DNA of 64,000 nt. It comes from Eledone cirrhosa. Lineage: Eukaryota. Shown here one piece after another: positions 6,508 to 64,000 of the stretch. The position numbers were made by a program, and so were the translations under genes. The notes beneath the pieces were generated by a model. The model made no database searches, was not told where the DNA came from, and was given only the letters and a program-made list of their open reading frames with translations. The DNA is taken from the NCBI GenBank assembly GCA_964016885.1, contig OZ024742.1, positions 55,552,001-55,616,000 of the forward strand, written 5' to 3'. Position 1 is the first letter of the stretch; each line of letters opens with the position of its first letter.

Positions 6508-8552
<2,045 letters not shown>

Positions 8553-19513: not shown

Positions 19514-19555
<42 letters not shown>
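17910..19555 (+). mobile_element. R4/Dong-type LINE copy D2, 5'-truncated, with (AAT)n tail
   Basis: ORFs 17988..18872 (DDLKL, YTYLG) and 18882..19424 (RLE) separated by one stop. Confidence 0.95.
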
Positions 19556-19563
<8 letters not shown>

Positions 19564-33649: not shown

Positions 33650-33684
33650 GTTTAAAATAGAGTGGAAAAGATGGGAAAGACCAC

Positions 33685-35818
33685 TTACCGTACTTTTGGT
33701 AGAGGAGGGATGGTTTTTACATCCCTTTTCACTTGATCGTCTGGTGAAGGGACCGTTGAATCGTCCCTTCGGCTGGTCGTCGGCTCTTCTAAGAGAATGT
33801 CTGAGTATACTCTTCGATTGCTGGTTCCTCCTAGGTCCCTGAAATCACCAACTGCGTTGGGGAATTTCGTTTTAATGTTTGTGTATTGTTTCTGTGCTAT
33901 TTTTAGCAGTCTTATGTTAGTTGGCGTTTTGATTGGTGCTGGTATTATGTAGTCGTGTTGTGAAATGTCTGTGTGTTCAATTATGTAAGTCATTAGTTTC
34001 TTGTTGTGTGTATTTATTGCCGTGCATTTGTTTTTCTGGGGGTGGGGTGTGGTTCTGCTATTTTCTTTTCGTTGTTGCTGGGTGTGTGTGTTTTGTTGTT
34101 GTGTTTGCGATGTTGGTGCTTGTGGTGGTGGTGTTGAAGGTGTTGTTGGCGGTGGGGTTGTCGCCGGTGGTGATGGTGGTGCTAGTGTGGGTGGTGATGG
34201 TGTTGGTGTTGTTGCTGCTGTGGGTCTCTTTGCAGTAGACTTTACCCTTTTCTCATTTCTTTCCTCCCTTTTCAAAGGCGACGATGCGCTGCTTCTGCGT
34301 TTGTGCCTTCTTACGACCTTTTGCCATCCCTCTCCCACATCACACTCCATGTCTGATTCTGTGAGGTCGGGGAGGGGTACCAGCTCCACTCTTTCACTTG
34401 TTGTTGTTGGTGATGTTTGCACTGGAGTCTCTGTTGCAGCTGCATTTGGTATTGCTGTTGTTGTTGTTAATATTTCCACTGCTGCTGCTGTTTTTGATTT
34501 CCGTGGAGTGGGTATGGGTGCCACGGGCCTATCGTTCCTGGTTGCCGCTTGTTCTGTTGCTGGTAGCCGTGGAGCCGGATTCGGAAGGAGGGGGGTTTTC
34601 TCCTTTCTCAGGGTCTTCTCGTTGCAGATGGCCCTGAGGTGAGTCTTCAATCCACAGCGAAAGCATTTCGGGCGTTTGCTCTCAACACTTATGGGCAGTT
34701 GAGGGCCGTTATCGAAGTCTATCACATCCGGGATAGCTTCGATGCACTCCTGGCTGGTTTGGATTAGCATCTCAATGGAGGAGCCGACCCAATCTTCTCT
34801 TACTTTTTTCTGTACTTGCAGTACAGTTGTTTTGTCCTCGATTCCGACGAGGACAGACGCGGCCGGCCAAGAAGGGGTCATTCCGGGGGGGGACGTGGGT
34901 CAGTTTGACCCTCACAATTTTTTGCCCGCAGTAGGAGGGCACCAACACCATTTCCTCGCTCCTTAGGGTCACTACTGATTGGGCCTTTGCCTCCTGGGGT
35001 GTGGCAAAAAGTACGTCTACGGTGGCATATTTTTTGCCTCGGGTGATGTGCGTTTTCCGCTGCCACACAGACCCCAAGGCTTTTTGTATTTGGGCCTCTG
35101 TGGCTCTTTCCACCCTACGGGATTTTGTACTTACTGTACGGTACGTGACCGTACAGTGCTCTTGGGTTTCGAAAAATCTTTCCGCTGCCTTGCAGATTGC
35201 TCGGTGTCCGTTCTTTGTCACCATCTTCTTCGCTTCCTCTAATTCCTCATTTGTTATGAGGATTGTTTCCAAGTTTTACGCAATACCTGCAAATGAGATT
35301 GGTTTTTCTCTGCTGTTGTTGTTGTCGTCAGAGCTGCTGGTACTTTTGTTGTTGCTGCAGGTACTACGACTACTGCCTCCGCCGCTGTTGCTGTGGTTGT
35401 TGTTGGTGTTGCTGCTGCTAATGCTGTTGTTGTTTATGCTGCTGGTGATGCTGTTGCGGCTGCTACTGTTGTTTTCATTGTCACTGTTGCTGTTGTTATT
35501 ACGGCTGCTACTGCTATTATTCCTGACGTCAGACGAATGAACTGGGTTTTCGTATTTCCCGCACACCTGTTTCGTCGCTGTCGTCGTCGTCGTGGAGAAA
35601 CCTTGCACGCTTTGCACGAGACTTTTCTTTTCTTTCGTCACTTGCGAAAGAGAAGGGAGGGAGAGAGACACATTTAAAGAAGGGAGGGAGAGAGACAATC
35701 TTCTCTCTGCTGTAGTGATGATTGAGGAAGAAGAAGACGGAATGAGTGGGAGTGACGTATGAAATTTCTTTTTCGTAGCCCTGTTGTTTTTTTGTTTAAA
35801 ATGAAATTTTGGGTACAA
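33685..35818 (-). pseudogene. T3 ORF1 (gag-like, CCHC knuckle) with one in-frame stop and one frameshift
   Basis: 35276..35818 and 34772..35272 are in the same frame across a TAA; the shift to 33685..34881 falls at a G run near 34885; CFRCGLKTHLRAIC knuckle; Pro/Thr-rich tail. Confidence 0.8.
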
Positions 35819-41155: not shown

Positions 41156-41290
41156 ATAATAATAATAATAATAATAAGAAGAAGAATATATATATATATA
41201 ACAAAGAATTGTGGTAAGGAACCAGATGGACCCTAATGCACCAGAGTACTCAATACTTAGAGTAGTAGTGTGGGAAATAGGAAAAAGTAT

Positions 41291-41389
41291 GACCCCGACG
41301 ACAGAGCTCAAGCCGTTTCGACGGCTATTTCTGGACTAAATTAGAATGTTTAGCCTGGTGAATAAATAGCCGAACTTGTCAAGGGGGTA
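41291..41389 (-). ncRNA. Type I hammerhead, family A (within a pLTR-like element starting near 41200)
   Basis: Minus strand: ACCCCC-TTGACAA-stem II CGGCTATTT/AAATAGCCG-GAAAC-GGC..GTC-GTC-GGGGT. Core is partly decayed. Confidence 0.72.
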
Positions 41390-42054
41390 CTTCCTCAAGA
41401 GGATTGGCTAAAAATTGTTGTAAACACAAATAAGTCTATCATGGCATTTGGGTGGTGGTGGTGGGGGGGGGGTGTAGATGTGGCTGAACTTGCCCCTATA
41501 ACAATAGGGGAGTGAGTGGAGCGCTCAAGCGTTGAAAGTGATATGTATACAGCAGATTCTAAGGATAGTGTATGAAGTGGAGGAAGGAGGTTATAGAATA
41601 TGTAAATCGAACGAGAGTAGGAGACAATAAAAGATAATAGAAAGAAATACAAAAATATATAAAATTAGATAGTGAGAAATGAATAAAAAAAATCACAATG
41701 CTATCTTACAATTACAGGTTAATAAGTTGAGAATAGAAAAACTTTTAGAAATTGAGTAGTACGAAGACTGATACAAAATTAAAGGGGTTTAACACGTCTG
41801 TTATAAGTAGTTAGTAAAACGTATTCGGCCAATTCTATCTTAAAATTACAGGGACTACGGATTAATGTTGAAATATATTTCTTTAATGAAATATATACAA
41901 GGAGGATTAATAATTTTTTTAAAAGGTAACATTTGAAGCTCTAGTTAAATTTTAATTAGTTATCTACCTAGCTATGTGTGATTAACACTTTACAAATTAT
42001 CCTCTGTGATTGTTTCATGTGTTTATTTTAAATATATATATGTCAATAAATTTC

Positions 42055-42098
<44 letters not shown>

Positions 42099-42150
42099 GT
42101 GAGGTTTTTTTACAAAATGAAAAAAACGAGGTGTCCTACACGAGTGAGAG

Positions 42151-42414
42151 TATAAGGAAAAAAGATGAAATCTAAAATGCAACTGGAGTCTTTTTTTTTT
42201 TTATATATTTATTTTGTTCCTTTACCGGTTTCGCAGTTCTTGTGCTTTTCAAGAGTAGGATTGAGATCGAGGGTTTGTGGTTTTGAGAAAAATCACAAAC
42301 GCTCCATCTCAATTCTACTTTTGAAAAGCACAAGAACTGCGAAACCGGTAAAGGTATCAAATAAATATATTTAAAAAAAAAGACTCCAGTTGCATTTTCG
42401 ATTTCATCTTTTTT

Positions 42415-42421
<7 letters not shown>
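42151..42421. repeat. ~270-bp near-perfect palindrome with an HHR-like motif in each arm
   Basis: Arms are reverse complements about ~42286; right arm 42316-42356 reads TACTT-TTGAAAA-GCA-CAAGAAC-TGC-GAAAC-CG-GTA-AAGGTA. Confidence 0.9.
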
Positions 42422-42474
<53 letters not shown>

Positions 42475-42587
42475 ATAATAATAAATTTGAAGACTAAAAT
42501 CCAAAGAGGGCTCGATAAGTATAAATATATATTAAGGTTAAATGTGAAAGCAACGATTCTTTGCTTAAACTTTAATCTGTTATTTTA

Positions 42588-42656
<69 letters not shown>

Positions 42657-42664
42657 TATATATA

Positions 42665-42910
42665 CAGAGGAGACTGAGGTTAGCTGGACATGCTCACCGA
42701 CATCCAGAGGTGACATTGCACTCAGTGCTCCTGTGGGAGCCCCTACATGGACACACTGGAAGAGAAAACCAAGGTTAACATATGCTGCTGCCCTAAGGAC
42801 AGACACTGGTCTGTTGGAGACGCAGGACATGGCACCGATAATGAGGGACAGAGACCGCTGGATAGAAGTCGTCCATGGATATCTGGAATTTTACCCACCC
42901 TAGAATAGAA
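42665..42910 (+). mobile_element. RTE-clade LINE 3' fragment
   Basis: Reads RRLRLAGHAHRHPE..LLWEPLHGHTG then, after a frameshift, KPRLTYAAALRTDTGL..MRDRDRW; typical RTE C-terminus. Confidence 0.8.
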
Positions 42911-43698
42911 AATATATATATATATATATATATATATAAGACATTGTTGAGCGTAATAGCTGGAAATATAGAAGAGCACATAATATAAATATAGAGGTGC
43001 GTTGATATAACATATATATATGCGTGTCACTATGTTGATACCTATAGTTTTCTGGTGGTATAGTCAAATATGTGCCTTGAAAACTTGGGTAGCTGCTGTA
43101 TGAACATAAATAAAGAAGAAGAAGAAGAAGAAGAAGATGATGATGATGATGACGCTGCCGTGAATCGAACCAATAATTGTTAATGTAAAACATTACCAAT
43201 GAAACACTTGAGAGAAAACCTACCCTCGTTAAATTATTAATAGCTTTTGTGGATTAGAAGACTACCTAAATATAAAACGACATCAATATTGCAGGAAATG
43301 GAAATTTATTTTAAACCATATAGCTCGTGTTTCTTGTTTTTATTAGCGAAAGACAAATAATTATACAATGTAAATTTAGAGTAAACACAATGAATCGGTC
43401 GATTGTCTTAAAATATTCATGTTTGCGTGTGTGTATATGTGTGCGTGTGTGTGTATGTGTTTGTGTGTGTGTGTGTGCGCGCGCGCGCGTGTGTGTGTCT
43501 GCCTTTTGTTTCACATGTTCATTACTTTAAATTTAATGAAAATGTTGATGTCTATCAATCTCTGAAGAACGTTTGTAATATTGCATTGGATACTGATTAT
43601 TTACCTTCTGTAGATATGTCTCACCTCACATTATCTCTTATGGTTTATATATATATATATAAATATACACGGGTGTGTATGATTGTGTATGAAAAATT

Positions 43699-44040
43699 AT
43701 ATTAATAAAAGGAATTCCAGCTTTGTCTGATTTACTCGTTTAATTACAACCCTTTAAAAGTATAATGATATTATATTGAGAATGAAATAGTATGGTAGAA
43801 TATTAAAAGTTAAGTGTTAATTGAACAAGTACTTTCATGCTTTCGCAATCTTCAGGATCATATTGTGTGGTGACAGTCAAGTTTGCAATTTTCAACTGTG
43901 GAAAATTGCAAACTTGACCATACTATTTCTACCATACTATTTTATTTCTACCATACTATTTCATTTCAATATAATATCATTATAATTTTAAAGGATTGTA
44001 AATAAAACGAGTAAATCAGACAAAGTTGGAATTCCTTTTA

Positions 44041-44047
<7 letters not shown>
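43699..44047. repeat. Inverted-repeat element (~100-bp arms) with an internal hammerhead and an 18-bp hairpin
   Basis: 43699-43800 vs ~43947-44047; minus strand 43827-43859 reads CTGAAGA-TTGC-GAAA-GCAT-GAAA-GTAC-TT; hairpin at 43876-43918. Confidence 0.85.
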
Positions 44048-44130
<83 letters not shown>

Positions 44131-44133
<3 letters not shown>

Positions 44134-44597
44134 TTGCGTGCTATTGTTCTCCACGCTCCACATATGACTTATTATCTTCGTTTTTTCGTTCATTGCCAGA
44201 GAACGTCTCTATGCACCACCTAAGAGAACATTAGTCTACGACCTCTTTTATACCATAAACGTGGTTCTGTCTTTGCGCGTAATTGTTTTTCACCGCTCCT
44301 ATTAATGACGTATTATTCGTTTTTTCCCGTTCTTTGCCAGCGAACGTTTCCACGAACCAAAGTATCGTCTTCCTGTCTTTCTCCTGTTGCAACGTTTTTT
44401 GAAATATCCAGTTCTGCGTTTACAGATTGACTTTGTTAGCTTCAGAAGATCCCGTTAAGGGTGAAAGCAGCGATTCTTTGCTTAAACTTTAATCTGTTAT
44501 TTTAATAAATATTTGCTCTACGGTTCTTATATATTTGATATATATTTTCCTTATCGAGCCCTCTTTGGATTTTAGTCTTCAATTTTATTATTATTAC

Positions 44598-44598
<1 letters not shown>
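44131..44598 (+). mobile_element. Non-coding pLTR-like element between (TA)n tracts; partial copies at 42471-42592 and 51638-51757
   Basis: Shared end CTTATCGAGCCCTCTTTGGATTTTAGTCTTCA; HHR-like CAGAAGA-TCCC-GTTAA-GGGT-GAAA at ~44443-44466. Confidence 0.7.
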
Positions 44599-44670
<72 letters not shown>

Positions 44671-44701
44671 TTGTGTGTGTGTGTACATATATACATACAT
44701 G

Positions 44702-44733
<32 letters not shown>

Positions 44734-44770
44734 AGTATATATATATATATATAGATATATAAACATATAT

Positions 44771-44853
<83 letters not shown>

Positions 44854-44867
44854 TATATATGTATATA

Positions 44868-44946
<79 letters not shown>

Positions 44947-44965
44947 ATATATATACATATATATA
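44598..44965. repeat. Long compound (TA)n/(TG)n microsatellite
   Basis: Seen directly. Confidence 0.95.
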
Positions 44966-45514
44966 TTGTTAACTGCTGTGAAAAATGTCGAAGGAGAACA
45001 AATATTTGTAGACATTTCAATGTATTGAAAATCATTTGTGATTATATAACGACTGAAGTCTGATACTGAAATGACATCTATTTTGTTCTTCATCTATTAT
45101 TGCTAGTTTTAGATGCTTTGGATGGATAGGAGTAAATTTAGTTTGTGTAATTATTAATTAAATCTTAATAAATATTGTAACTATGATAATTTAATAAGCC
45201 AAATGATTCATGTATAAAAATTTTATATGCAAAATTAACAACTACTTTTGTTTGTTTCTCTCAATTATATTCATGTTGACTATCTACAGTTATATGTTAA
45301 TGATTGGTTCCAAAATATTGAAAGGCGTTGCTATGGCAATGCTATTACACAATGTTTTATTTATAGAGAAACTACTGACGTTTCATGTCATAAATATTTA
45401 TGTGTTAACATTTCGTAAAATTTTGGAGTAGATTTAAATAGAATATAGTATGTCACTTTCATGACGATTGATAAATTCATATTCATAGTGAGTTCATTAT
45501 TATAATTGCATATT

Positions 45515-45724
45515 GGCGGTGGAATGGCCGTATCGGTAAAGGGTCAGACACCATGCTTTGAAGCATAGAGTTACGTCCCTTTATGATATGAGTTCAAATA
45601 TCGCCGAGGTTAAATTTGCCTTTCACTTTACGAGGTCGATGATATAAAGTACCAGTCACGCACTGGGGTCGATTTAATCGACTCCTCCAAAATTGCTGTC
45701 CCTGTGCCTATATAAGAAACCATA
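45515..45724 (+). mobile_element. tRNA-derived SINE, longer variant
   Basis: Same head and body, with extra GGTCGATTTAATCGACTCCTCCAA; 16-bp TSD ATTATAATTGCATATT at 45499-45514 and 45725-45740. Confidence 0.9.
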
Positions 45725-47165
45725 ATTATAATTGCATATTTCAATAAATGTATACACAACACAAACAGAACGATCTATTTTTTAATTCATATTCTTTTAA
45801 ATCCAAGCTGAAAATTTATCATACTCGTCATACTAAACAAATCACTAAGGATATGTATGTTTGAAGTAGGATAGCAGGAATCATATCAGAAAATTATTTG
45901 AAATTGTATAGCTATACATTGTAGAAAATACTGATAGCATTGCATATGGAACACAGCCTTATATAAAATAAAATATTCACTCATGTGTCATACAAGCTGA
46001 TTTATTTTGACATGGTTAAATATCAAGTTAATCGATTAGGATTACATTTAGCTTTACGGTTAGCGTTGTATTTAGAGATATGGTTACGGTTACAGTTAGG
46101 GTTAGTAATAATTACTTGTATTTGACGTTTATTCCCCGGTTGTGTTATAACTTATTTGCATTGAATTCTGTGTTGATATGTTCGCATTGTAATACAATAA
46201 ACACATACTATAACTATATTTTACATCCACGTTTAATACATGTGTGTTCTCATGCTTTATTTATAATTCTAATTAATCATTATCTGATCTAATTATATAA
46301 TAAAACGAATTAAACTATTAAAACTTCGGCTGGGAGAAACGACATCAACATAACTAACGCTTATAAAGTAAATTAATATTTTCAACCACAAAGTTTTTTT
46401 TAATTAGTTACATATCAAATATTTTGTAATATCCGCAGTGTGATTATCATGTATCAATTGAAAACAAGATTGAAATTGATTATTGGAAGAATATAAAATC
46501 TCATACAAACATCATAGTTTTTATAATGATTTATTGGTTGTATACAACTGGTATCACGCAATTAATTGACCAGTCATGAATAATTATTAACAAAGGCTAC
46601 ATGTTGGATAAAAACATTATCAAGAATAGTTTCTCAAATATGAATGCTAATCTGTAAAGCCCTATCTGAATAAAACATGAGAACAATTTTCATCGCCATG
46701 AAAGCATAATATGAATAAAAGTTAGTTCTGATGAATTAGTGAATGTATGCATTTTTATGTAGGAATTAAGGGTTTTGCAGGAAAGGGCGCGATTCGTGAA
46801 ATGTATGGCGTAAGTTTGGTCAGCAACATCTGCAGGTTTATACACATTCCTTAGGATGGAGTGATTAGTCACCAACGACATTAAAAGGGCAGATAAAGAA
46901 GTGTGTACAAAAGGATCATGACAACCCAGTGCAAATCCTCCAGTTCATGAAGATCTACATATCGAATGGTGAATTTAAGTGAATCAATGCTAAAATTGGA
47001 AATCATTTCCGTATGCTGATCTGAATTTATGCAGCTTTGTAAGGCGTGACAAAAGAGATACAATTTGCCGCTGTCGAAAACACGAATCGGCTTACTAAAT
47101 AGTGATGGTTTCGAAATTGAGGGGACAACCATCATGCACACCTACACACACGTGCACGCAGACAC

Positions 47166-47196
<31 letters not shown>

Positions 47197-47225
47197 AAAT
47201 CTGGTATACGTATGTGTGTGTGTGT

Positions 47226-47300
<75 letters not shown>

Positions 47301-47303
<3 letters not shown>

Positions 47304-47497
47304 TAATATAGAAACATTTCTATAGGACTACAACTGTTTCATTCATAGGAAATCACCAGGAAGCGCTTCTTGGTGATTTTTCTCGAATGAAACAATTCTA
47401 GTCCTGTAGAAGCTTTTCTATATTAATACATTTATACTCTGCTATCTATTGAGTACCTTACTTACTGTGGTTATCCCCGATTCAACCCGGAATAACA
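47301..47497 (+). mobile_element. pLTR-like fragment with a 128-bp palindrome (47301-47428) and HHR-like core; related copy near 59077-59134
   Basis: The arms and the 59077 copy give a consensus CTGATGA-TTTC-x4-GAAT-GAAAC-AGTT-GTA. Confidence 0.75.
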
Positions 47498-48063
47498 TAT
47501 ATATATATATCATAACTCATGTCTATAGAATCAATCAGATATTAAAATATATACTATTTCTTCTTCTAATCAGCATAATTAACCATATACATAATCAAAT
47601 CTAGCAAGCTTTAAGAATAAATTTTCTAACGGGGAAATCTCCGACAAATAACTGACCGCAGCTAGTTCGCGTTAACTCCGTTCACCATTTATCAAACACT
47701 TCGGCAGCATGCAGAATCCGATCAAATACACCATCAACCGCACGTAATTAGTAGTAAAATTAAACTTAGAAGAAATGCGCACATACCGTAATTATATCTC
47801 TACCATGGTTTCTTCCTAGTTTAGGACATCCAAATAATATGGATATGCTTTGAGTCAGGAATCATCAGGAGACAAACTCAGAAATAGACATTTAATTTCT
47901 CAGACAGACCGCGCCAAATTTAGATTCAAAAAATGGCTAAGATCGCTATGGAGGTGTGTACCAGAGAGAAAGCGTGTGATTGGTCGCTTACGGCGGGTCG
48001 GCATGCTGCTAGAAAGCGCAGCCATATATCGCCAACTTTAATCTCAACCGAAAGGGAGATTAT

Positions 48064-48091
<28 letters not shown>

Positions 48092-48097
<6 letters not shown>

Positions 48098-48497
48098 CTC
48101 CAAATTATTTTGTCGAGCCAAAATTGGCCAACACTGCTACTATAGTTCATAGTAACGGTCCGGCTGATGTCTTCTTAACAAACCACTCTTCACTGATTGA
48201 CCTCGATGTCACGTGATTGATTCTTTTGAATTTGCCACCGAAGCAGTAGGCAGTGATTTTTTCAATGGCTTGGAACTTAGTCCACGCTTTGCTTTTTTCC
48301 ATCCACTGAATTATTTTTGTATAAGTTCCCTGTGTCCACGTATTGCCTAGAAACTTAGCTGAGAATAGACTTCCCTGATGACGAAAGGCTTCTCCGTACG
48401 TTTCTTCGAAAACTATGTTTATTCCCTTTCAGAATCTAATTAGTTGGAGTGAAATTTTAGTAAGTAAGTTAATTTTTATAATTTTCTTATTTTACGC

Positions 48498-48523
<26 letters not shown>
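48092..48523 (+). mobile_element. Diverged copy of the 540-bp HHR-like unit, opposite orientation
   Basis: Reverse-complement similarity to 48543-48962; CCCTGATGAC-GAAAGG..TTC-GAAAAC near 48373-48412. Confidence 0.8.
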
Positions 48524-48542
<19 letters not shown>

Positions 48543-48550
<8 letters not shown>

Positions 48551-49688
48551 CGTAAAATAAGAAAATTTAAAAAATTTTAAATTAACTTACTAAAATTTTC
48601 ACTCCAACTAATTAGTTTCTTTAATGGGATAAAGATAGTTACGCAATGTAACTGTCGAGAATTCATTACGTCATCAGGGAGTCTATTCTCAGCTAAGTCT
48701 CCAGGCAATGCGCGGACACTAGGGACTCATATAAAAAATAATAATAATTCGGTGGATGGAACAGCTAGCGAGAACTGAATTCCAAAGCACTGAAAAAGTT
48801 CACTGTCTCTGGTCAAATCGCAGATTCTAAAGAATCAATCACGTGACACTGTGGCTAGTCGGAAGGAGTGGGGTGGTAAAATGACAAAAGCCTACTACAA
48901 CTACAATAAGTTAGTAGTGGATTTGGCAGGTTTGCTCAACAAATAAATAATTTGGAGATAAATATAGAGAATTAGTATATTTACCAACATATGCGTACAG
49001 ATGTACACTAATGCTAGCAAATACATAAATTATGTCATAGTGCCTAGGTGGTTCAATGCAGGAGGATGCAGAAAAATTATATGAAAGACGTAAAATAAGA
49101 AAATTTTAAAAATTAAAAATTAACTTACTTATTAAAATTTTCACTCCAACTAATTAGTTTCTGTAATGGGATAAAGATAGTTACGCAATCTAACTGTCGA
49201 GAATTCATTACGTCATCAGGGAGTCTATTCTCAGCTAAGTCTCCAGGCAATGCGCGGACACTAGGGACTCATATAAAAATAATAATAATTCGGTGGATGG
49301 AACAGCTAGCGAGGACTGTATTCCAAAGCACTGAAAAAGCTCACTGTCTCTGATCAAATGGCAGATTCTAAAGAATCAATCACGTGACACTGAGGCTAGT
49401 CGGAAGGAGTGGGGTGGTAAAATGACAAAAGCCTACTACCACTACAATAAGTTAGTAGTGGATTTGGCAGGTTTGCTCAACAAATAAATAATTTGGAGAT
49501 AAATATAGAGAATTAGTATATTTACCAACATATGCGTACAGATGTACACTAATGCTAGCAAATACATAAGTTATGTCATAATGCCTAGGTGGTTCAATGC
49601 AGGAGGATGCAGAACAATTATATGAAAGACGTAAAATAAGAAAATTTTAAAAATTAAAAATTAACCTACTTACTAAAATTTTCACTCC

Positions 49689-49692
<4 letters not shown>
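48543..49692 (-). repeat. Tandem repeat, ~540-bp unit x2.1, retrozyme-like
   Basis: Units start at 48543, 49081 and 49622 and are near-identical; each full unit has CCCTGATGAC plus a GTAATG/CATTGC-type stem on the minus strand; (TA)n on both sides. Confidence 0.9.
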
Positions 49693-49729
<37 letters not shown>

Positions 49730-49773
49730 TATATTTTTGAGACAAATTTTAATTATTTGACTTTATTATTATA

Positions 49774-49825
<52 letters not shown>

Positions 49826-51467
49826 TACAGAGAGAGGGAGAGAAAAAAAGAGGGAGAGTGATAATGGGAGATGCTCGCCATGATGTTTTCGTCAGCACAT
49901 TTTAAATAATCGCTAAATTGTATACGAGGATTTTACAAGCTTTCATCTCCTCGGTAACCACATTTGTAACGTGGTATGTTAATTCAACCAATCGTTCTAC
50001 TTAAAAAAAAAAACGGATTTGTCGATGAATTATATGAGGGAAGCACTAATATTGAGAAACCGGAGAGAAATGATAAAACAAAAAAATGAGAAAAAATATA
50101 ATATTATATTGATTGAATGAGAGGAACTTATTCACTCTGTATTTCACAATATTAGTTTAGCAGTAAATAAAGAAAAGACCATTTCCATTATTGCATTCCA
50201 TATATAATAAATTGAATCTTACAGCCTTGTGTTAAAGCATTGACAGTGAAGGAACTTACACAAAAAAACGGGTTCTCTTCACATTCGACAAATATTATAT
50301 TCATATAATTATGAGTCAAAAAGCAAACTGTAGGTGTGAAGAACTTGCTTTCTATACAAAAATTATTTCATGGTAAGATGTACTGGACATGGTTAAACTA
50401 GATTGTAATTCAGTTAACAAAAGAATATGATAGTGAATAAATTTAATTTCATATATTTACTAGAAGAAAAACACCATAATTAGTGGCCTCTATCTAACAC
50501 TTGGTTCTAATGCAATTCAAATATATCAGTCGATCACACGTTAAAGGTTTGTGCTATCTCACTTATATAACATTGCCAAGTTTTATGATAAATAATGCGT
50601 TAATACATACACTATCACCAATTTCCAGCGTTAATCTACATTCTAACTGATAAACGAACAGCAAAAGTCTAAGCTAAAATAAGCCCTCCAAAGAAGTAGT
50701 TATACGGTTGCTTCCGATATAAGTCTGGATGTATCTCCGTCGCTTTTATCGATGTGTTTGATCAATGCAGGACATTGCACGGGAAATTATCGTTCGTATA
50801 CACAGGTATACACGACTCAAAAGGATATAACAAGATACATACATTCATATTTACATAGATACATACATTCAGTTATATATATATAGTTAGTGCAAGTATA
50901 TATATATATCTATATATCTATATTTATCTGTCTATGTATACGTATATACATAGACAGATAGATATAGATAGATAGATGTATACACATACTCTCACACACA
51001 TACACACAAACACACACACACTTCCCCCACTCACATATAGATATAGATATTTGGCAGTAGCACTAAGAAAACGTTATTGAAATAGGGTTGTACGTGAAAG
51101 TAAATACTATATGTTTATATACAATAAATGCTCAAATGTTCTTCATGTACAGTCGATATAGACTCTAGTTTATTTTCATATCAGTACAGGTTTAGTGAAT
51201 AAATAAATCTTGAAACAGCGCACCTGGTATGCTACTGACATCTCTGGGCCGTTTTCAGAGATCAAAGCAGAGAATTATTTGTTTTCGTAGAGAAGAATTC
51301 TTCTGCTTTAATAGCGATGTTCCCATCTCTTTATGAATGTAAACATGTAGTATATGCCTTCGTATAAGCCCTATTATATATAATTAGTGGTAGTACGCGG
51401 TGTTTGCATAGCTATGGCTTCCTAAAACCGTGTTTCATTACAAATACGAAATTTCTATATACATATG

Positions 51468-51522
<55 letters not shown>

Positions 51523-51882
51523 GATATACATACCAACACACACATATATATCCTAGAAACGATCGTAAAATGATGAATGTTTTAAAATAAGGAACTGTTT
51601 CTTTGTTTTTATTCATTATTTTTATTAATTTATATATAGTAATAATAATAAATATGAAGACTAAAATCCGAAGAGGGCTCGATAAGGTTAATATATGTGT
51701 AAAAATATATAAAAACCGTAGACCAAATATTTATTGAAATAACGGATTAAAGTTTATCAATATATGTATAAACATTCCACGTAAGATGATGGTCTTTATA
51801 CATATGCTGGTGGAAGGAGATGGTGGTGATTGGGAAAAGGGAATCCTCTCTTTCTCACTTTCTCTTTCTTTCTCTCCCTATT

Positions 51883-51916
<34 letters not shown>

Positions 51917-52347
51917 GATATATATATAAATATATATATATAAATTATTTATAGGTGAAACATCCTAATTTTTCTGGATACCTGTTGAGAAGCACAGAAC
52001 ATTGTAATAGTTCACTTTTTATACTATCATTGCGAAACTTATTTGGGTTTTGAAATTCAAATTTATCTGCGGAACAGGTTTGGATTTTGAAATTTAAATT
52101 TGTCCAGGTATCACGGCTATTTGCAATATGGGTTTGTTTTTATTGATTTATTATTTTAAATCGAGACAGGCAAACTATATTTTATTTGAATTAGTTTATT
52201 TCATTATAGCTAACTTCGTCTTTTGCAATACAAACACTTTTGTGTTTATCATATATTCATTTATATTAACTTGTATTTCTCGGCTCAGAAATGCTTCTTT
52301 CTTTGAGTTAATTAATTGTAAAAGACTGTTAGAGTTTATAACTCTGA

Positions 52348-52407
<60 letters not shown>

Positions 52408-52539
52408 TATTTGTGTATATGTAAAATGTAAAAGTGATAAAACAGAATTATAATTAAATATTCATTTTTTTCTTTAATCAAAGAAAATATATAGATATTT
52501 ATTTTATATTTGTTACATCAAACAAATTTCAGTTGCATC

Positions 52540-52830
52540 AAGTATTGCTGGCTTTAATTGGGGTACCAATCTTATTAAATACCATAGACTTTCTTCTGAT
52601 ATTCTGAGGACAGTTAGAACAGATTTGAGTAAAATCAACAGAATTTTCTCATCAATCATTGAATCTTGATCTGTTGAAGCCTACTTCTACCCTCACAACT
52701 CTAAAAAGATAAGAATATATATTCGAAAATATTTCTTGAGAAAATTCTCATGTGTTTTAACTGCCCACAGAATATGGGAGAAAAAGTGTTGGATATTTGA
52801 TAAGATTGACACACATCCAAACCAGTAATA
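52540..52830 (-). mobile_element. Possible very old PLE GIY-YIG remnant
   Basis: Minus strand gives ..HENF.. and LRISEESL..I..P.L, similar to PLE endonuclease C-termini; weak. Confidence 0.3.
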
Positions 52831-52994
52831 TTTTATAAATATTAAATTGCTTTAATATAATTGTTATCAAAATATTTATTCTACCGGGATAAAGACAAAC
52901 ACATCTTCTCTAAACATACTTCAGTGATTTTACACTTTTGCGCTTTATCTATAATCACAGATTTGTATGGAAGTTTGACACCTTTTTTCAATTA

Positions 52995-53037
<43 letters not shown>

Positions 53038-53395
53038 ATATATATATATATATATGTGTGTGTCTCCGTGTGTGAAAATATATACATATTCTATACACAG
53101 AGATGTTGTTCTTGGACAAACGGTGTAGAACTGTTGCAAATTGGACACGACAAAATGCATTGTCTATTTTCAGGAACTTGATTTTCAAGAAAAAGCACAT
53201 AAAAGTCATTACGGCAATTTCCTTCTTCCTCCAAAATGGAATATGCTTAAATTTACATGTGAAAGAACCACGAAGAAGCTAACATAACATGACAACATTT
53301 CGAAAATATGACATAACTAATTCCATTTCGTTTATTGTGTATTACAAATGTGATCTGTTCTGAAATATAATGTACGAAAGAAAAAAGAACATCTT

Positions 53396-53575
53396 TTGGC
53401 AGTATCTGTAGAGGGTCGGACGCCATGCTTTGCAGCAAAGAGTTACGGCCCTTTATGGTTTGCGTTCAAATCCCGCCCAGGTTAACTTTGCCTTTCATCC
53501 TTACGGGGTCGATAAAATAAAGTACCAGTAATACACTGGGATAATTGCTGGCCTTGTGCCAAAATTAGAAACAAT
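53396..53575 (+). mobile_element. tRNA-derived SINE
   Basis: Family head, B box GTTCAAATCC, body and TAGAAAC end abutting (TA)n. Confidence 0.9.
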
Positions 53576-54124
53576 TATATATATATATATATATATATAT
53601 CAGTAAACCAAAAGTTTGATAAAGTCAAATGTCAGAGAAAATAGGAAATAACTGGGTAAAATTCTAGAGGAAAACAGGGTTTAATGGAAAACAGTTTTAA
53701 AATGTTACTGTAGAGCATGAAGAAATAAAAAGCGTCATATTTAATGTTCTACTCGATTTTACTTTACCTGGATTTTCAGATGCTTTTCAGATTTTCAGAT
53801 GTGTGCAATGCGAGTGGCCGATTTTGACTCAGTTAGGCTGGTATTAGACGTAATCATTGAAGCCATATACAAAATGTTGACAATTACGATCTAATTAGCA
53901 TTTCCACCTGTCGAAACAGTTGAAAACAATGAGTCTCGGCCGTTGGACTCTAACGTGATTTGAAAACTCACCAAAGCAAAACTGGGAATCAAGTGGAGGT
54001 AATGTTCATCACTGCAGTATATGCAGAAAGGAATGTAAATCTTTTAACAGAGTTAAAGGATCATGTTCACGCCACTCGTGTGTATGAGAGCAAGTGGTGG
54101 CAATTCTTGAAACCGAGATGCAGA

Positions 54125-54169
<45 letters not shown>

Positions 54170-57100
54170 ATAACATGGTATCGTTTAAGGTAATCCAGTT
54201 AGATGTGGTGATTACTCTTACATATATATATAAGATTACTCTTATATATATATAAAAAAACGATTTTTTTAAAGAGTGAGAATATCTTATAAAAGAAAGT
54301 TAGAATATAAAATATGGTTTACTATTTTATTCTGCGAGTTTACAAACGAAATTTTAAGAACGACTACAATAACAGTAAAAATAAAAGATTATTGAACACT
54401 AGCGTAACATTCCATATTTAGGTAGACATTAAATACTCTGCTTATACAATTTACAGCAATAGCAAACGTAATTATTACCTCGCCCGCACACATAAACACA
54501 CAAACACATACACACACAAACACAGAGATACGCCTGCACACAGACACCCACATGCACACACTCTCTCTCTCACATACTCATATATATATATACATATATG
54601 TGTGTGTGTCTCTGTGTCTATGTGTGTGTGAGAGAGAGAGTGTGTGTATGTGTGTGTAGGTACATGTATTATGGTGAGCTTATGCTGGGAAAACGAATAG
54701 TAAGCCGAATATAAATACAAGGAGTCTCTAAAACCAAATTTGAAATGTCTTAAATTAAGTTACAAATGTTTTGAATCACTTTCGAGAAGCATGGTGAGCT
54801 ACGTTTTGAGGTGGTATGACAAAATTGTTATCTTGACAGAATTAAGCTTGCTGAAACGTTTGTAAAAGTGAGATAAAATAGCTCTATTGTAGGGAGTCAT
54901 TCTGATTCTTCCTCTAAAAATGCCTTATACGCAACAGTATTCATATCTCATGCAAGTCTGAGATCGCATCAGTGCACCCGTATGAGGAAGGCACTCATGA
55001 ATTATCGTAACTTCCCGGATGATTAGTTTCAATTTCATGTTTATCAGAAAGCCTGCAATTCACGTGGAGTATTGAAGCAGCACTTGAACAATTATAATAA
55101 ACAAGCGGAAAATGGAATCAATTCTGAAATGAGGCATTGGTGTAATATTATCTGTTAGCTCTGTCTTCCAAATCTTTCCCTCGAATGGCATTACTCACAT
55201 TCTTGCACAAGGAACTGAATCACTCTATAAAATGACCAATACAATTACAATTACTCCTGATCGCTCATCTCAATTATTTGACACCTCTACAGGCGTTTTG
55301 CAATATGTAACTCTTATAGCATTTGATTAAACATCCCACTAGACTATGTTCTTAGAATCTCTCTTGACATCATCAAGGAGAAATGCATCACCTTCAAACC
55401 TCGGCTGTGCTTAGGATATCTCTCGAAACATCTTCCAAGTCTTGACATTGCAGATTATATAGATCTTATATCAGACATCATGGAGAATAGCCAATAGATT
55501 CACAATATTTGCTAGAAACCAGCAGAATATCACAAAGCAGGAAAGAAAAATATATTACAGAGGCAAGGCTAGACACTTTAAACAGTGGAAATACTAAATA
55601 TCTCATAACACAATTATTCCATCTTATTTATGTGGTTAGATCGTGATCCTCTATTATTAGCATGATTCAATAAGGAAGAGGTGTATTTAATGGAGGGTAA
55701 GTTGGGAACATTGTGAATATATTTAGGGATAATATAACCGTAATTAGAATGTTCTTTCATCATAGAAATTCATTGATTCACTATATATTCACCAAATATA
55801 TTTCTTGTCACTATTCATTTTGTAATCAAAATGATTTGTATAGATATTGCATATGAAACGTACAATTACATTAAAGGTTAATGCTTGCGACTTAGAATTC
55901 ACTCATATTTATGCGGAGGATTCAATCGATTCCAATCAAATATATTAAGTTCGATACATTTATATTTTTTATTAATGCAACTATCAGTAAATTGCTTTGG
56001 TGTTGTCAACACTCTGAGATTATATAGATTCAAGCCCCCGAAGGGAATCAGAGACTGGAATGTTTGTAAACAGCGTCTAATTAAATAAATGCCAAAACTA
56101 ACATAGGATGTTATATTGTATAGATTTTGTAATATAGTATAACATGACCATGTTTTCTGTTTAATTTGTAATATACAACCAAATAAACTTTTTTGTGTAT
56201 ATTTGTGATGAAATTAAAGAAGAGACGCGTGGTTTATCCTCAAGGTTACGTCTAATATATTGTATAGAAATAGTACATTCTCAACGTGGTAAATTGTATA
56301 ATAAATTAGTGTAGGTGTAACAGCAGAGTAATATTTGGAATAGCATTTATTGATATATATATATATTACAAGTTAATTTGGTTAGTCAGCCCTCACTTCA
56401 ACATCGACAAGATTTTGGCTAAATAGCTGCTCCTAAAACATGTAGCTGTGGTAGTTTCCATTCAAATATTTACCCATTATATATTTCAACATACTTAAAG
56501 ATTAAGATATTTATGAGAAAATGCTATTTGAGAATCAACAGTCGTACACATCATTTCTCCACCTATTTCAAATGAATTATCAACTGGATTTAAATATCAA
56601 GACTCGTGGAACGTTGCATTCTATGAAATCGTTCTGATATCCCACTAATATGAAAATACTTATTCAATTAACACATGCATCATTTCTCACTAACATAAAT
56701 ACCTATTGATCAATGTAAACTCTTTGTTGGCAGTATTTTATCTCAAATAAAATTAATACTTGATGTTAGCACAGAAAGGACAGAAACGTGTTATAAAATG
56801 CATCAGCTAACGACCATTCTCTGCTATAGCGGCTATTGCACTTTTAAAATCAATGTATACCTCGCACATTTATTCGTGCTGTTTGCTGTTCGTAGATAAG
56901 GTTGATAACAGATGTAGTATTTTATTTTTGACTAGTCATTTTTAAAGTAAAACATTGAATTCATCGTGGAAACATGTATAACAAAGCCGATAGAGTGTAG
57001 CCTGCAGATGTCGTAACTCTATGTTTTACAATATATTTGCAAGATTAATACTCACTATTTCATGTCATGGAACGTTTCACTGAAGCGAACATCACAAGAT

Positions 57101-57942
57101 ATCAATATTCGCCTGAAAAATATGATTTATGTTATGAATATTTTAAATCTATACTTAAGAACTATTCCTTTTTGTGAGAGCATGTGTATATCTTCGATCG
57201 ATAGTCAACACTATAAATATTACTAGATACCTTTCTGAGAGCCAAAGTAAAAACATATATTTAGTATTTTTCGTCGGCAGTGTGAAAATATGTAGTAGAA
57301 AAATAACACACTCCTGTCTTTTGTACCATAGTCCCATCTGTAGAAATGATAAAATATGCAGTTGGTGTGAAAAGAGAGGCTGAAACGTTTGCCCTCTCAC
57401 TCCACTCTATCTCTCTACTCCACAATTTCCCTTCCCTCTCACTCTCTTTTTCTCTGCTTTTAATTTTGTCTCTCATATGTAAAAATTCCTCAACTTAGAA
57501 TAATATAAGTATAGTAAAACGATTATCGGATGGAGCGAGTATATCGGCGAAAATAGTATTGTTTACTAAAGTACGTTTGTAAAATGATCGCTTCCTCTTA
57601 CACTGTATGTATATTTTCTAGTTCTACCTTATATTGAATAATTATAGAATCATAATCAATATGGATAACGATTTCAGCTCCTCCAAAGGTAGTCTTGTCA
57701 AATTGATTGAATACGTCCAGTGTCACTACTCTTCATTTTCTTTTAGGTAATTAGAGAAACGAAGATTAAGGAAAGAGATTTCATTTCCGGAGCTGTCATT
57801 TAGATTGATGAACTGAATGGCTGTGTACATATTGACAGTGGAAATATTTCGAAGGCGTACAATACCGAGGAGTAAAGATTAGTGAAATCGTGATCTATGG
57901 GCCCTAGAACGGGAGACGAAAGTGGAAGGGAATACGGAATAA

Positions 57943-57943
<1 letters not shown>

Positions 57944-58039
<96 letters not shown>

Positions 58040-58076
58040 GTGTGTGTGTGTGTGTACGTATGCATACTTGCATATA

Positions 58077-58123
<47 letters not shown>
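57944..58123. repeat. (TG)n plus (TA)n microsatellite
   Basis: Seen directly. Confidence 0.95.
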
Positions 58124-58126
<3 letters not shown>

Positions 58127-58331
58127 AAAAGAATCAGAATCTCGACGGCCGAGCTCAAGCCGCCGTTTCGACAGCTATTTCTGGACTCAGAAGTCAAGAA
58201 ATAGCTGTCGAAACGGGTTGATCTCTGCCGTTGGGGTTCTGACTCCTTTACTATTACCCACTCTACTACCCAAAGTATCGAGTACTCTGGTGCGTTATGG
58301 TCCACCTGGATCCATACCCCACTTCCTTCGT
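58124..58331 (+). mobile_element. HHR family A 3' fragment preceded by an inverted copy of itself
   Basis: 58191-58331 is the reverse complement of 41200-41337; 58124-58187 is an inverted copy (CGTTTCGACAGCTATTTCT / AGAAATAGCTGTCGAAACG). Confidence 0.85.
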
Positions 58332-58443
58332 TATATATATATATATATATATATGTAGGAGGTGAGTTTTATTGTAGCACAATAAAGCAATGCAAATACC
58401 GGATAAGTAGCATTTAACTGTTTATATGACTGGAGTATAAATA

Positions 58444-58864
58444 ATATGAAATCAAAAGATGGTTAAAAGAGTTCCACGTATTTTATTATGCGCATTTCAA
58501 AAACAAATAACATCATGGGATGATATTTGCCTTCTCATCAGATAAAATAGGGAGACATGATATGAAGCTTAAAAAACACTTGCGTGCAGTGAAGTGTTAA
58601 ATCAACATACGAAAAATAAAATAATATATTTTATATTTCATATGTTGATTTAACACTTCACTGCTCGCAAGTGTTATAATAATATGTTTTATTTTTCATA
58701 TGTTGATTTAACACTTCACTGCCTGCAAGTGTTTTTTAAGCTTCATATCATGTCTCCCTATTTTATCTGATGAGAACGCAAATATCATCCCATGATGATA
58801 TTTGTTTTTGAAATGCGCATAATAAAATACATGGAACTCTTTTAACCATCTTTTGATTTTATAT
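58444..58864. repeat. ~420-bp palindrome with a complete hammerhead in each arm
   Basis: Arms are near-perfect reverse complements, with an extra ~45-bp internal duplication near 58635-58676. Confidence 0.92.
58759..58829 (+). ncRNA. Type I hammerhead ribozyme (mirror copy at 58479-58549 on -)
   Basis: Stem I TATTTTAT/ATAAAATA, CTGATGA, long stem II CAAATATCATC/GATGATATTTG, GAAA-T-GCGC-ATA. Confidence 0.85.
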
Positions 58865-58893
58865 TATATATATATATATAGGAAAAAGTCAAG

Positions 58894-58988
58894 ACCCCGA
58901 CGGCTGCGCTCCGGCGTTTCGACAGCTAGATCCGAACTAACCCAGCAGTATTAGGACGGCAAGGACCTAGCTGAACTCATCAAGGGGT
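58894..58988 (-). ncRNA. Type I hammerhead, family A, best-preserved copy
   Basis: Minus strand: ACCCC-TTGATGA-stem II CAGCTAGGTCC/GGATCTAGCTG-GAAAC-G..C-GTC-GGGGT. Confidence 0.82.
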
Positions 58989-59134
58989 ACAGTCCACATA
59001 TGGACATGCATTCAATACAAAATAGCAGAAGTATCAAATCAAACAATCCTAAAAATGGTTAGATTCCTTCATTGTTTCCCGATGATTTCTCCCGAATGAA
59101 TCAGTTCTAGATCTGTAGAAGCCTTTTCTATATT

Positions 59135-59935
59135 ATCTATATATATAAATCTGAGGATGTGTGTGTTAAGGTTTGTAACGAATTAACGTTCACAATTTCC
59201 AACGGTTTCTATTCAAAGTCGGGACAATTATTGCTTTTGGTCAGGAAAAGGTGACGAAGCAAAAACATTTCAAATCCATCAACAATAAGGGCAAACATCG
59301 ATCATGATCATTCCCCTCTCTATAATTTAACTGCTTTACTCTCTCTGTCTCTCTTCACTCCCTATATGACAACACTGCAGTGGAGCCTTCCGTATTGAGC
59401 GTTCCGTATTGACATAGGGATTATCTGGGGCATTTTCAATCGGCTTCTGGCAAATAACAACCCGCAAAATAACACTTCATATAACAGATTAATTATATAG
59501 ACATATGAATCGGAATGTAGCCCGTGAACTTTTTCCTGGGCAAAATTATTCTAACAGACATGACCTCATTGCCAGAGTGTTCAGACTCAAACTGGCTAAA
59601 CTCTTTTGGAAGACGATTCGCAGTGGGATTCCACTTTAGCGGAGGGTGCTTTGTTGAAATCACCTAAAGGTCTACGGGAATTATTTGCCATTTTGCTTCA
59701 AAAGTGTAAATTGGGTGGTCCCAAATCTTTATGGGTCAAGTACAGAGACTTCATGTCTGAGGACTTCCTGCGCCTGGCTCATCTGCAGTATACTTCAGTG
59801 GAAGTTGGTTACTGCGACATTATCTACAATAGAGCACTCATTGATATCGAGGACGCCCTCCTTGACATGGCTGGGAGTGAGCTGGCGACATATGGCTTGC
59901 CGTCAACCGTCAGAGAGGAAGCTAACGCGCTATGA
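59135..59935 (+). mobile_element. Internally deleted Helitron (RepHel remnants)
   Basis: 5' TCTATATATATAAA; NRHDLIARVFRLKL Rep motif near 59550-59600 joined to LEDDSQWDSTLAEG..LRELFAILL..C..P..LW..MSED..YNRALIDIE..YGLP (Rep-helicase linker). Confidence 0.82.
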
Positions 59936-62823: not shown

Positions 62824-63013
62824 ATATATATATATATATATATTTATGCGCGCGTGTGTGTGAGTGTGTTTATATATATATATATATAAGTTGAAAAAAA
62901 TGAAAACGAAATTTCATTTCTCACTCTTAGTATGGCACTTACTTAAATGGCACTTACTAAACTGATGCGTGCATATATGTATGTGTACCTGTATGCATAT
63001 GTGTATATATATG

Positions 63014-63071
<58 letters not shown>

Positions 63072-63306
63072 TGCTACTGTACGTCTGTATACATATATGT
63101 ATGTACGTATACATACATACTTACATTTAAGTAAGTGCCATACTAAGAGTGAGAAATGAAATTTCGTTTTCATTTTTTTCAACTTATCGTTTTCGGTATG
63201 CCTGACCGATTTAACTCACTCAATATGCAAATTAGGCTGCTCAGCCGTTAATTTTCATAAGGAAAGTATATACTTTCGAACGTTCAACTATCTGGCAGAT
63301 GGGTAA

Positions 63307-63349
63307 ACGGTGCTGATGATAGCTAACAAGCTTGAAACTAGTACATCGT
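63307..63349 (+). ncRNA. Minimal type I hammerhead ribozyme, canonical core
   Basis: ACGGTG-CTGATGA-TAGC-TAACAA-GCTT-GAAAC-TA-GTA-CATCGT; stem I ACGGTG/CATCGT, palindromic stem III ACTAGT. Confidence 0.9.
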
Positions 63350-63512
63350 TCCTGTGTCAGTGTTGAACAAAAAGGTGACGTGGTTGCCTTAACACCGTAT
63401 GGCATAAATTCAGGCTGTTCGCTTTGTTGACAAACAAACGAACAAAGCGGCCGGCGTTATAATAAACGTCGGCTAAACTGATGCGTGCATATATGTATGT
63501 GTACCTGTATGC

Positions 63513-63559
<47 letters not shown>

Positions 63560-63798
63560 TGCTACTGTACGTCTGTATACATATATGTATGTACGTATAC
63601 ATACATACTTACATTTAAGTAAGTGCCATACTAAGAGTGAGAAATGAAATTTCGTTTTCATTTTTTTCAAATTATCGTTTTCGGTATGCCTGACCGATTT
63701 AACTCACTCAATATGCAAATTAGGCTGCTCAGCCGTTAATTTTCATAAGGAAGGAAAGTATATACTTTCGAACGTTCAACTATCTGGCAGATGGGTAA

Positions 63799-63841
63799 AC
63801 GGTGCTGATGATAGCTAACAAGCTTGAAACTAGTACATCGT
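63799..63841 (+). ncRNA. Minimal type I hammerhead ribozyme, second unit
   Basis: Identical to 63307-63349. Confidence 0.9.
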
Positions 63842-64000
63842 TCCTGTGTCAGTGTTGAACAAAAAGGTGACGTGGTTGCCTTAACACCGTATGGCATAAA
63901 TTCAGGCTGTTCGCTTTGTTGACAAACAAACGAACAAAGCGGCCGGCGTTATAATAAACGTCGGCTAAACTGATGCGTGCATATATGTATGTGTACCTGT

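Follow-up and report, generated by a model that had tools for sequence, protein, structure and literature searches.

The closest described systems are the insertion units of EN+ Penelope-like elements (PLEs), in which inverted 5′-truncated copies lie beside the pLTR, the polarity is head-to-head and the tail is one-sided (PMC3846280, PMC8557442 and the curation guide PMC8969392). The accessible text of PMC8557442 and of PMC11167929 states that the origin of the inverted repeats and of the one-sided tails is open. Self-priming of an antisense RNA was proposed in PMC3846280, and EN-mediated resolution of the tail in PMC8557442. Metazoan PLEs carry minimal type I hammerheads (min-HHRs), with dual min-HHRs found 100–700 bp apart on opposite strands; their cleavage is low and dimer-dependent (PMC4209133). 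The Poseidon protein, a predicted dimer, nicks and extends both strands in vitro, with uncut sense RNA as the template and two RT start sites that bound the tail (PMC11167929). The architecture of inverted pLTR, one-sided tail and opposed min-HHRs is already published. What is new here is a set of counts that favor a two-primer route over the self-priming already proposed in print. Counts of tail distribution and of junction classes were not found in the accessible parts of PMC3846280, PMC8557442 and PMC8969392. A two-primer model for PLE inversions was not found in the literature searched, with Evgen'ev & Arkhipova 2005, Arkhipova 2006, Pyatkov 2004 and the supplements lying outside its coverage. 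For cephalopods, the available text of a paper on Octopus vulgaris repeats (PMC13282606) mentions neither hammerheads nor palindromes.

The window is a stretch of 64,000 nucleotides of Eledone cirrhosa DNA. The original prediction placed five inverted structures in it, and self-BLAST of the microsatellite-masked window recovered all five. We label them by their starts: E1 (42151), E2 (43699), E3 (47301), E4 (58124) and E5 (58444). The matches span 42155–42417 (E1; arm identity 89%), 43703–44043 (E2; 77%), 47304–47425 (E3; 80%), 58127–58249 (E4; 78%) and 58444–58864 (E5; 89%), and in the window self-comparison, E1–E5 are mutually unrelated in sequence. As predicted, (TA)n or TA-rich runs adjoin all five, and the 3′ ends of the arms face outward in each, as mapped on family references. 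One arm per palindrome carries a tail of 40–90 nt that lies outside the intervals first assigned. These one-sided tails, with duplications of 19 bp in E2 and 58 bp in E5, bear out the unequal arms and small internal duplications that had been described.

The five are built as follows. The left arm of E1 (42091–42284, minus strand) is the pLTR end of a PLE that we take, from its motifs, to be of Neptune type. It has a tail of ~60 nt (42091–42150) and a min-HHR core of the U3-A8 variant at 42223–42252, also on the minus strand. The right arm (42284–42421, plus) is tailless, has (TA)n at its end and has a min-HHR core at 42321–42350. In E2, the left arm (43661–43899, minus) has a 42-nt tail (43661–43702), a 5′ end at the modal run-off point discussed below and an HHR core at 43827–43855 (minus) with one mismatch in helix I. 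The tailless right arm (43900–44048, plus) starts with ~19 nt from the run-off end, followed by a deletion that removes the HHR and by the 19-bp tandem duplication (43924–43967). The arms of E3, both with a degenerate HHR, are a tailless left arm (47293–47364, minus) and a right arm (47365–47495, plus) with a tail of ~68 nt. E4 likewise has a tailless left arm (58122–58186, minus) and a tailed right arm (58193–58334, plus; tail ~80 nt), and neither arm keeps more than the 3′ half of the HHR core. E5 has a left arm (58355–58627, minus) with a tail of ~90 nt and a full min-HHR at 58487–58541, a 58-bp tandem duplication at its center (58620–58733), and a tailless right arm (58687–58864, plus) with a full min-HHR at 58767–58821. 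The E4 and E5 tails face each other at 58330–58355.

Each structure was predicted to contain a full or partial HHR core. As worded this holds, but the hammerhead is complete on both arms at E5 only. A minimal type I descriptor finds nine cores in the window versus zero or one in 20 block shuffles. The family references of E1, E2, E3 and E5 and the E4-related long copies pass it (0/200 shuffles each), and only three of the ten window arms pass in full. In E1 each arm has a core, but helix I passes in the right arm alone, and the E2 core is confined to the left arm. The E3 boxes read TTGGTGA and CTGGTGA, versus CTGATGA in the family, whose reference has a full min-HHR. E4 retains the GAAAC...GTC half, the half after stem II, on both arms; a CTGATGA-type full-core pattern gave no match in E4, and a sister subfamily has TTGANAA instead. 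The expectation of a ribozyme on either strand is thus true of at most two of the five palindromes. An Rfam scan of the window returned 86 matches at E ≤ 1, none of them to the hammerhead family; miRNA matches in that scan were below threshold and were set aside as generic hairpin or microsatellite matches. The motifs resemble the min-HHRs of PMC4209133, as far as that text describes them, in the CUGANGA or U3-A8 core, the short palindromic helix III and the many unrelated families per genome. They differ in that E2 and E3 have U.U in place of G10.1-C11.1, the cleavage position of E2 is U and the E4 palindromes carry half a core.

In MFE folds, most core nucleotides pair with the other arm (61 of 63 in E5, 30 of 30 in E1 and 39 of 46 in E3), and read-through from either direction makes the antisense arm first. 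Transcription of the locus, should it occur, could plausibly give a hairpin RNA, but an active ribozyme within such a hairpin is unlikely, and the ribozyme-bearing dsRNA that had been envisaged fits poorly with predicted folds that bury the core in duplex. Nor was an A-to-I signal apparent among the E2 genomic arms, where A>G changes (4.1 per 1,000 sites) were not in excess of T>C changes (3.9). RNA contigs from four runs of one study cover the families, with no piece spanning the locus.

Each arm was searched against its own genome (3.0 Gb), and the best 30 loci per family were taken. An inverted partner within 450 nt is present at 8 of these loci for E1, 6 for E5, 14 for E2, 21 for E3 and 27 for E4; the E3 and E4 queries start near the palindrome center, which biases those two counts towards palindromes. 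Single-armed and paired copies are both found in each multi-copy arm family, and an optional tail and variable 5′ truncation occur in all five. As had been asked of the arms, several could be mapped to PLE 3′ ends. Longer copies reach RT and GIY-YIG frames upstream in E1 (RT in L271; a GIY-YIG ORF in L273, PF01541, E 7e-07) and in E2 (both in L259), and RT/EN frames in E5 (L034, L038 and L267). In Pfam, GIY-YIG scored above the cut-off in L259 and L273, and RVT_1 was weak in L259. The other five frames sent to Pfam gave no match; they include the two E5 frames, which we take to be RT/EN by eye from their motifs. For E4, the Penelope link runs solely via a sister subfamily, 88–90% identical, which has a full HHR and an RT-GIY-YIG end (L310, L313 and L333) and which, again from its motifs, is presumably of Penelope/Poseidon type. 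In E2, the same end is followed by the tail, (TA)n and an ATG at 6 of the 30 loci found with the ORF N-terminus, and this order is a pLTR arrangement. The E3 family has no RT or GIY-YIG frame in 25 long copies. Its long form is non-coding, ~370 bp plus the tail, and most copies share one 5′ end in (TA)n (L234–L258). Since it shares the HHR, the tail and the polarity with the others, E3 is likely a non-autonomous, PLE-dependent derivative. The arms are thus 3′ ends of hammerhead-motif retroelement families, Penelope-like for four of the five, and the pLTR origin proposed earlier is upheld to that extent.

Compared with the EN+ PLE insertion units as presented in PMC3846280, PMC8557442 and PMC8969392, the palindromes share head-to-head polarity, a tail at one end, junction palindromes, microsatellite targets and parents with GIY-YIG and RT. 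They are unlike those units in that both copies are often reduced to the sub-promoter part, 60–190 nt, in that about a thousand loci belong to one family, and in having tails of 40–90 nt versus 30–40 nt. Non-LTR retrozymes, as described in bioRxiv 10.64898/2026.07.22.740005, are likewise small HHR-bearing derivatives of PLEs, but they form head-to-tail tandems. That identity was rejected for E1–E5, whose arms are head-to-head.

The scale of the phenomenon is best seen in E2. Its exact core 15-mer occurs 7,559 times, and 1,246 head-to-head pairs with a gap of 20–130 nt were counted, versus none with a reversed-pattern control. About one third of the exact cores have another exact core close by as a partner. 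A different motif, used to count tail-to-tail pairs, gave 13 of them, which makes a ratio of ~100:1 for head-to-head polarity. Palindromes of 2–5 kb (L267, L268, L270 and L271) are also head-to-head with one arm tailed. With five families, and 1,246 pairs in E2 alone, both the polarity and its generality in this genome agree with what was proposed. The short palindromes left by E2 alone number at least 1,246, and a MITE finder might report them.

The polarity bears on the idea that the pairs arose from separate insertions into one (TA)n, or are fold-back artefacts of assembly. PLE ends do nest in each other's (TA)n, as the E4 and E5 tails do at 58330–58355, and the 13 tail-to-tail pairs exist. 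However, (TA)n is absent between the arms, the polarity is ~100:1, and the arms share subfamily yet differ by ~3% at background sites, unlike artefacts. The one-tail rule and the arm concordance set out below refute both versions, and we give this explanation almost no credence.

Fine junction statistics come from one family on one contig, E2, with a pattern that needs both 15-mers intact. The first 50 pairs listed were taken; one duplicate was dropped, and nine with a truncated or partial end were set aside for scoring tails. Of the 40 intact pairs, 39 are tailed on exactly one arm (p = 7e-11 versus 50%, the maximum expected for one tail if the arms were independent). The exception is tailed on both arms, with 30 nt on the second, and no pair is tailless. 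The same rule is seen with tail-free BLAST queries of E1, E2, E3 and E5, for which 46 of 47 intact pairs have one tail, five truncated E3 pairs having been set aside. Single-armed E1 copies, scored by eye, include 8 tailed and 11 tailless. The tailed arm exceeds its partner by >10 nt in 11 pairs, and in 6 it falls short of it by >10 nt. In L041, where the arms abut, the tailed arm reaches −230 and the other −414.

The 49 E2 junctions fall into several classes. Eighteen overlap in a 5-nt quasi-palindrome at the run-off end and 8 overlap by 1 nt; of the remainder, 8 are deleted and 15 have insertions. Short palindromes lie at the junctions, ACAGT in E2 and AGCT in E3. Both run-off ends are retained separately in 11 of the 49. 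Some fillers (L152 and L166) consist of short snap-back copies that extend from the two sides and meet at an internal palindrome. Such two-sided fillers, together with the double run-off ends, indicate that two free cDNA ends are needed.

These data allow simple fold-back to be weighed, in which a single cDNA snaps back and is copied into the second arm, before a cut or a joining at the boundary of the tail. The arms are concordant, snap-back fillers are present, and the two simplest classes, 26 of the 49 junctions, also fit a 1-bp snap-back, with a 1-bp stem and a loop of 3–4 nt. But copying cannot add a tail that is missing from the template. Under fold-back the loop-bearing arm is the one made first. 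Of the pairs in the two simplest classes, 16 have the tail on that arm, 8 have it on the other and 2 are uninformative; the non-loop arm therefore bears it in 8 of 24 informative pairs. The tail on the much shorter arm in 6 pairs and the two run-off ends kept in 11 of 49 also speak against it, as do 3 of 30 pairs with two different common haplotypes, although ectopic conversion could yield that last pattern. As the sole route, fold-back is already largely contradicted, and we consider it unlikely. The evidence favors two-ended priming.

At 6 loci, E2 has a (TA)n of its own immediately behind the tail, which matches the (TA)n target. Of 47 tailed arms, 21 have a (CT)n or (TCTA)n run after the tail, versus 0 of 42 tailless arms, and in E2 the post-tail microsatellite is on the tail side only. 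Between tail and (TA)n, runs of (CT)n, (TCTA)n or (AC)n reach up to ~25 units (E2 L151–L199; E5 L038, L046 and L059). Telomerase-like repeat addition was considered for these runs and rejected because the element has a similar variable microsatellite after its tail; a templated origin is the simpler reading, with RT stutter possible. A search for empty sites (130 sites) gave three uninformative matches, and TSDs would be hidden by (TA)n.

Subfamily variants suggest that the palindromes are re-made at each insertion. At nine subfamily sites in E2, discordance within pairs is 40/426 (9.4%), compared with 46.5% between loci, and none of 10,000 permutations was as low. The arms of a pair differ by 3.2% at background sites, and none of the nine sites has an allele specific to tailed or tailless arms. 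Where both arms belong to a common haplotype (30 pairs), 27 match and 3 differ; in the latter, two RNAs may have been used, or conversion may have come later. Gene conversion between arms could also have raised the concordance within pairs. The commonest E2 junction (113 nt) is found in several subfamilies, with both arms changed together, and one junction in several subfamilies means that it was re-made and not inherited. Formation at insertion, as proposed, is in keeping with both observations.

The alternative is that the palindromes multiply ready-made. They would then be MITEs of the Tc1/mariner type that target TA, or non-autonomous retroelements of palindromic form derived from a master. 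A TA duplication could hide in the TA flanks, the centers cluster, and one junction length is shared by 18 of 49 E2 pairs. On the other hand, the arms are the 3′ ends of retroelements and are linked to ORFs, some two thirds of the exact E2 cores are without a close exact partner, 21 different spans occur among 49 pairs and the ends are asymmetric. In addition, the arms change together across subfamilies, with neither arm-specific alleles nor separate clades at the nine sites. We regard spread as units as highly improbable. MITE identity was rejected in its own right on the variable length, the tail at one end and the many single-armed copies. The view that these are not MITEs, having neither fixed length nor symmetrical TIR ends, is borne out.

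The centers had been expected to vary between loci. Their variation is limited, and they cluster at what is likely the transcription start, a position estimated from motif spacing. Of 98 E2 arm ends, 63 are at one base (−192), 31 nt below TATATAAG, and E2 single-armed copies often start at that same base. Modal 5′ ends lie 29 nt below a TATA motif in E3 and ~32 nt below one in E1. E5 has no clear or canonical TATA. In the E4 sister, a TATA is ~85 nt above the center, where a 3′ splice-like TTTAG fits as well. The clustered centers are likely RT run-off at the start of the RNA, and the template could be the full mRNA, at its 5′ end, or a short transcript of the pLTR.

These positions bear on the published suggestion that an antisense RNA primes on itself to make a hairpin, which an endonuclease resolves by a staggered cut that leaves the tail at one end (PMC3846280, PMC8557442). 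It would explain the head-to-head polarity and the junction palindromes ACAGT and AGCT, and, given staggered resolution, the one-sided tail. Against it, the centers are at the likely sense start, ~30 nt below TATA, as are single-armed starts, and the 3′ end of an antisense RNA has no reason to fall there. Sense RNA was used in vitro, and the tail is the gap between RT starts, in the reaction as reported in PMC11167929. The double run-off junctions are also unexplained. We therefore hold antisense self-priming to be improbable.

We consider it likely that each palindrome is a head-to-head pair of 5′-truncated ends made in one insertion, in which RT is primed at the two ends of a (TA)n target after its cleavage, a mechanism read from genomic end products alone. 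The GIY-YIG domain would cut both (TA)n strands, and the ends would anneal to UA-rich stretches of the RNA. One target end would prime at the distal RT site and so acquire the tail, and the other, priming at the proximal site, would have none. Both cDNAs would usually run off the RNA 5′ end, ~30 nt below the pLTR TATA box, or stop earlier. Their ends would then be joined head-to-head via microhomology, often after a short snap-back extension, by RT itself or by host end-joining; snap-back is probably a step within the two-primer route. The short palindromes lack the TATA box and are likely dead ends.

The proposed reaction resembles that of the Poseidon PAc protein in vitro, with AT-rich cleavage, extension of both strands and a tail between two starts (PMC11167929). 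In its available text, that paper draws no link from the pair of start sites to the two ends of the target, nor to inverted insertions. A broader version has, in our judgment, an even chance of being right. Penelope integration would be a coordinated double-ended reaction of a dimeric RT-endonuclease, with each cut end engaged at a different start site, so that every two-armed insertion is one-tailed. The short palindromes would then be two joined 'strong-stop'-like cDNAs run off the RNA cap, a fossil of a missing step of the PLE cycle. Predictions that the existing in vitro system can test follow from the one-tail rule, from the run-off ends and from the double-ended junctions. L1 twin priming likewise uses two primers in one event, but there the inverted 5′ segment does not overlap the rest, whereas here both arms are copied from one and the same 3′ end. 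Of the fold-back or twin priming at TA repeats originally suggested, the PLE-driven route is retained, and neither plain fold-back nor L1-style twin priming fits.

Other elements in the window deserve brief mention. A 3.4-kb inverted pair (6608–10026; 85%) has RT and endonuclease-like frames; its left end meets (TA)n, and its right end runs on beyond the boundary, like that of a tailed arm. A sixth palindrome (48094–48961; 75%) overlaps a 610-bp tandem duplication in the region 48094–49691, which also holds a min-HHR on the minus strand (49219–49148). Single-armed HHR-bearing ends lie at 41198–41400, 58878–59008, 59076–59145 and 47801–47868; these comprise relatives of E4 in which the U3-A8 core is full, one copy of E3 and another family. 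At 63025–64000 is a 492-bp head-to-tail tandem with one min-HHR per unit (63313 and 63805), the only one of the structures examined that fits the retrozyme layout, and a 63-bp inverted copy is near it at 62887–62949. An open APE-RT frame of 1,204 aa (30230–33844, minus), which we take to be L1/Tx1-like, and an RT-REL frame of 692 aa (19473–21551, plus), presumably R4/Dong-like, belong to elements that are interleaved with each other's copies at (AAT)n runs.
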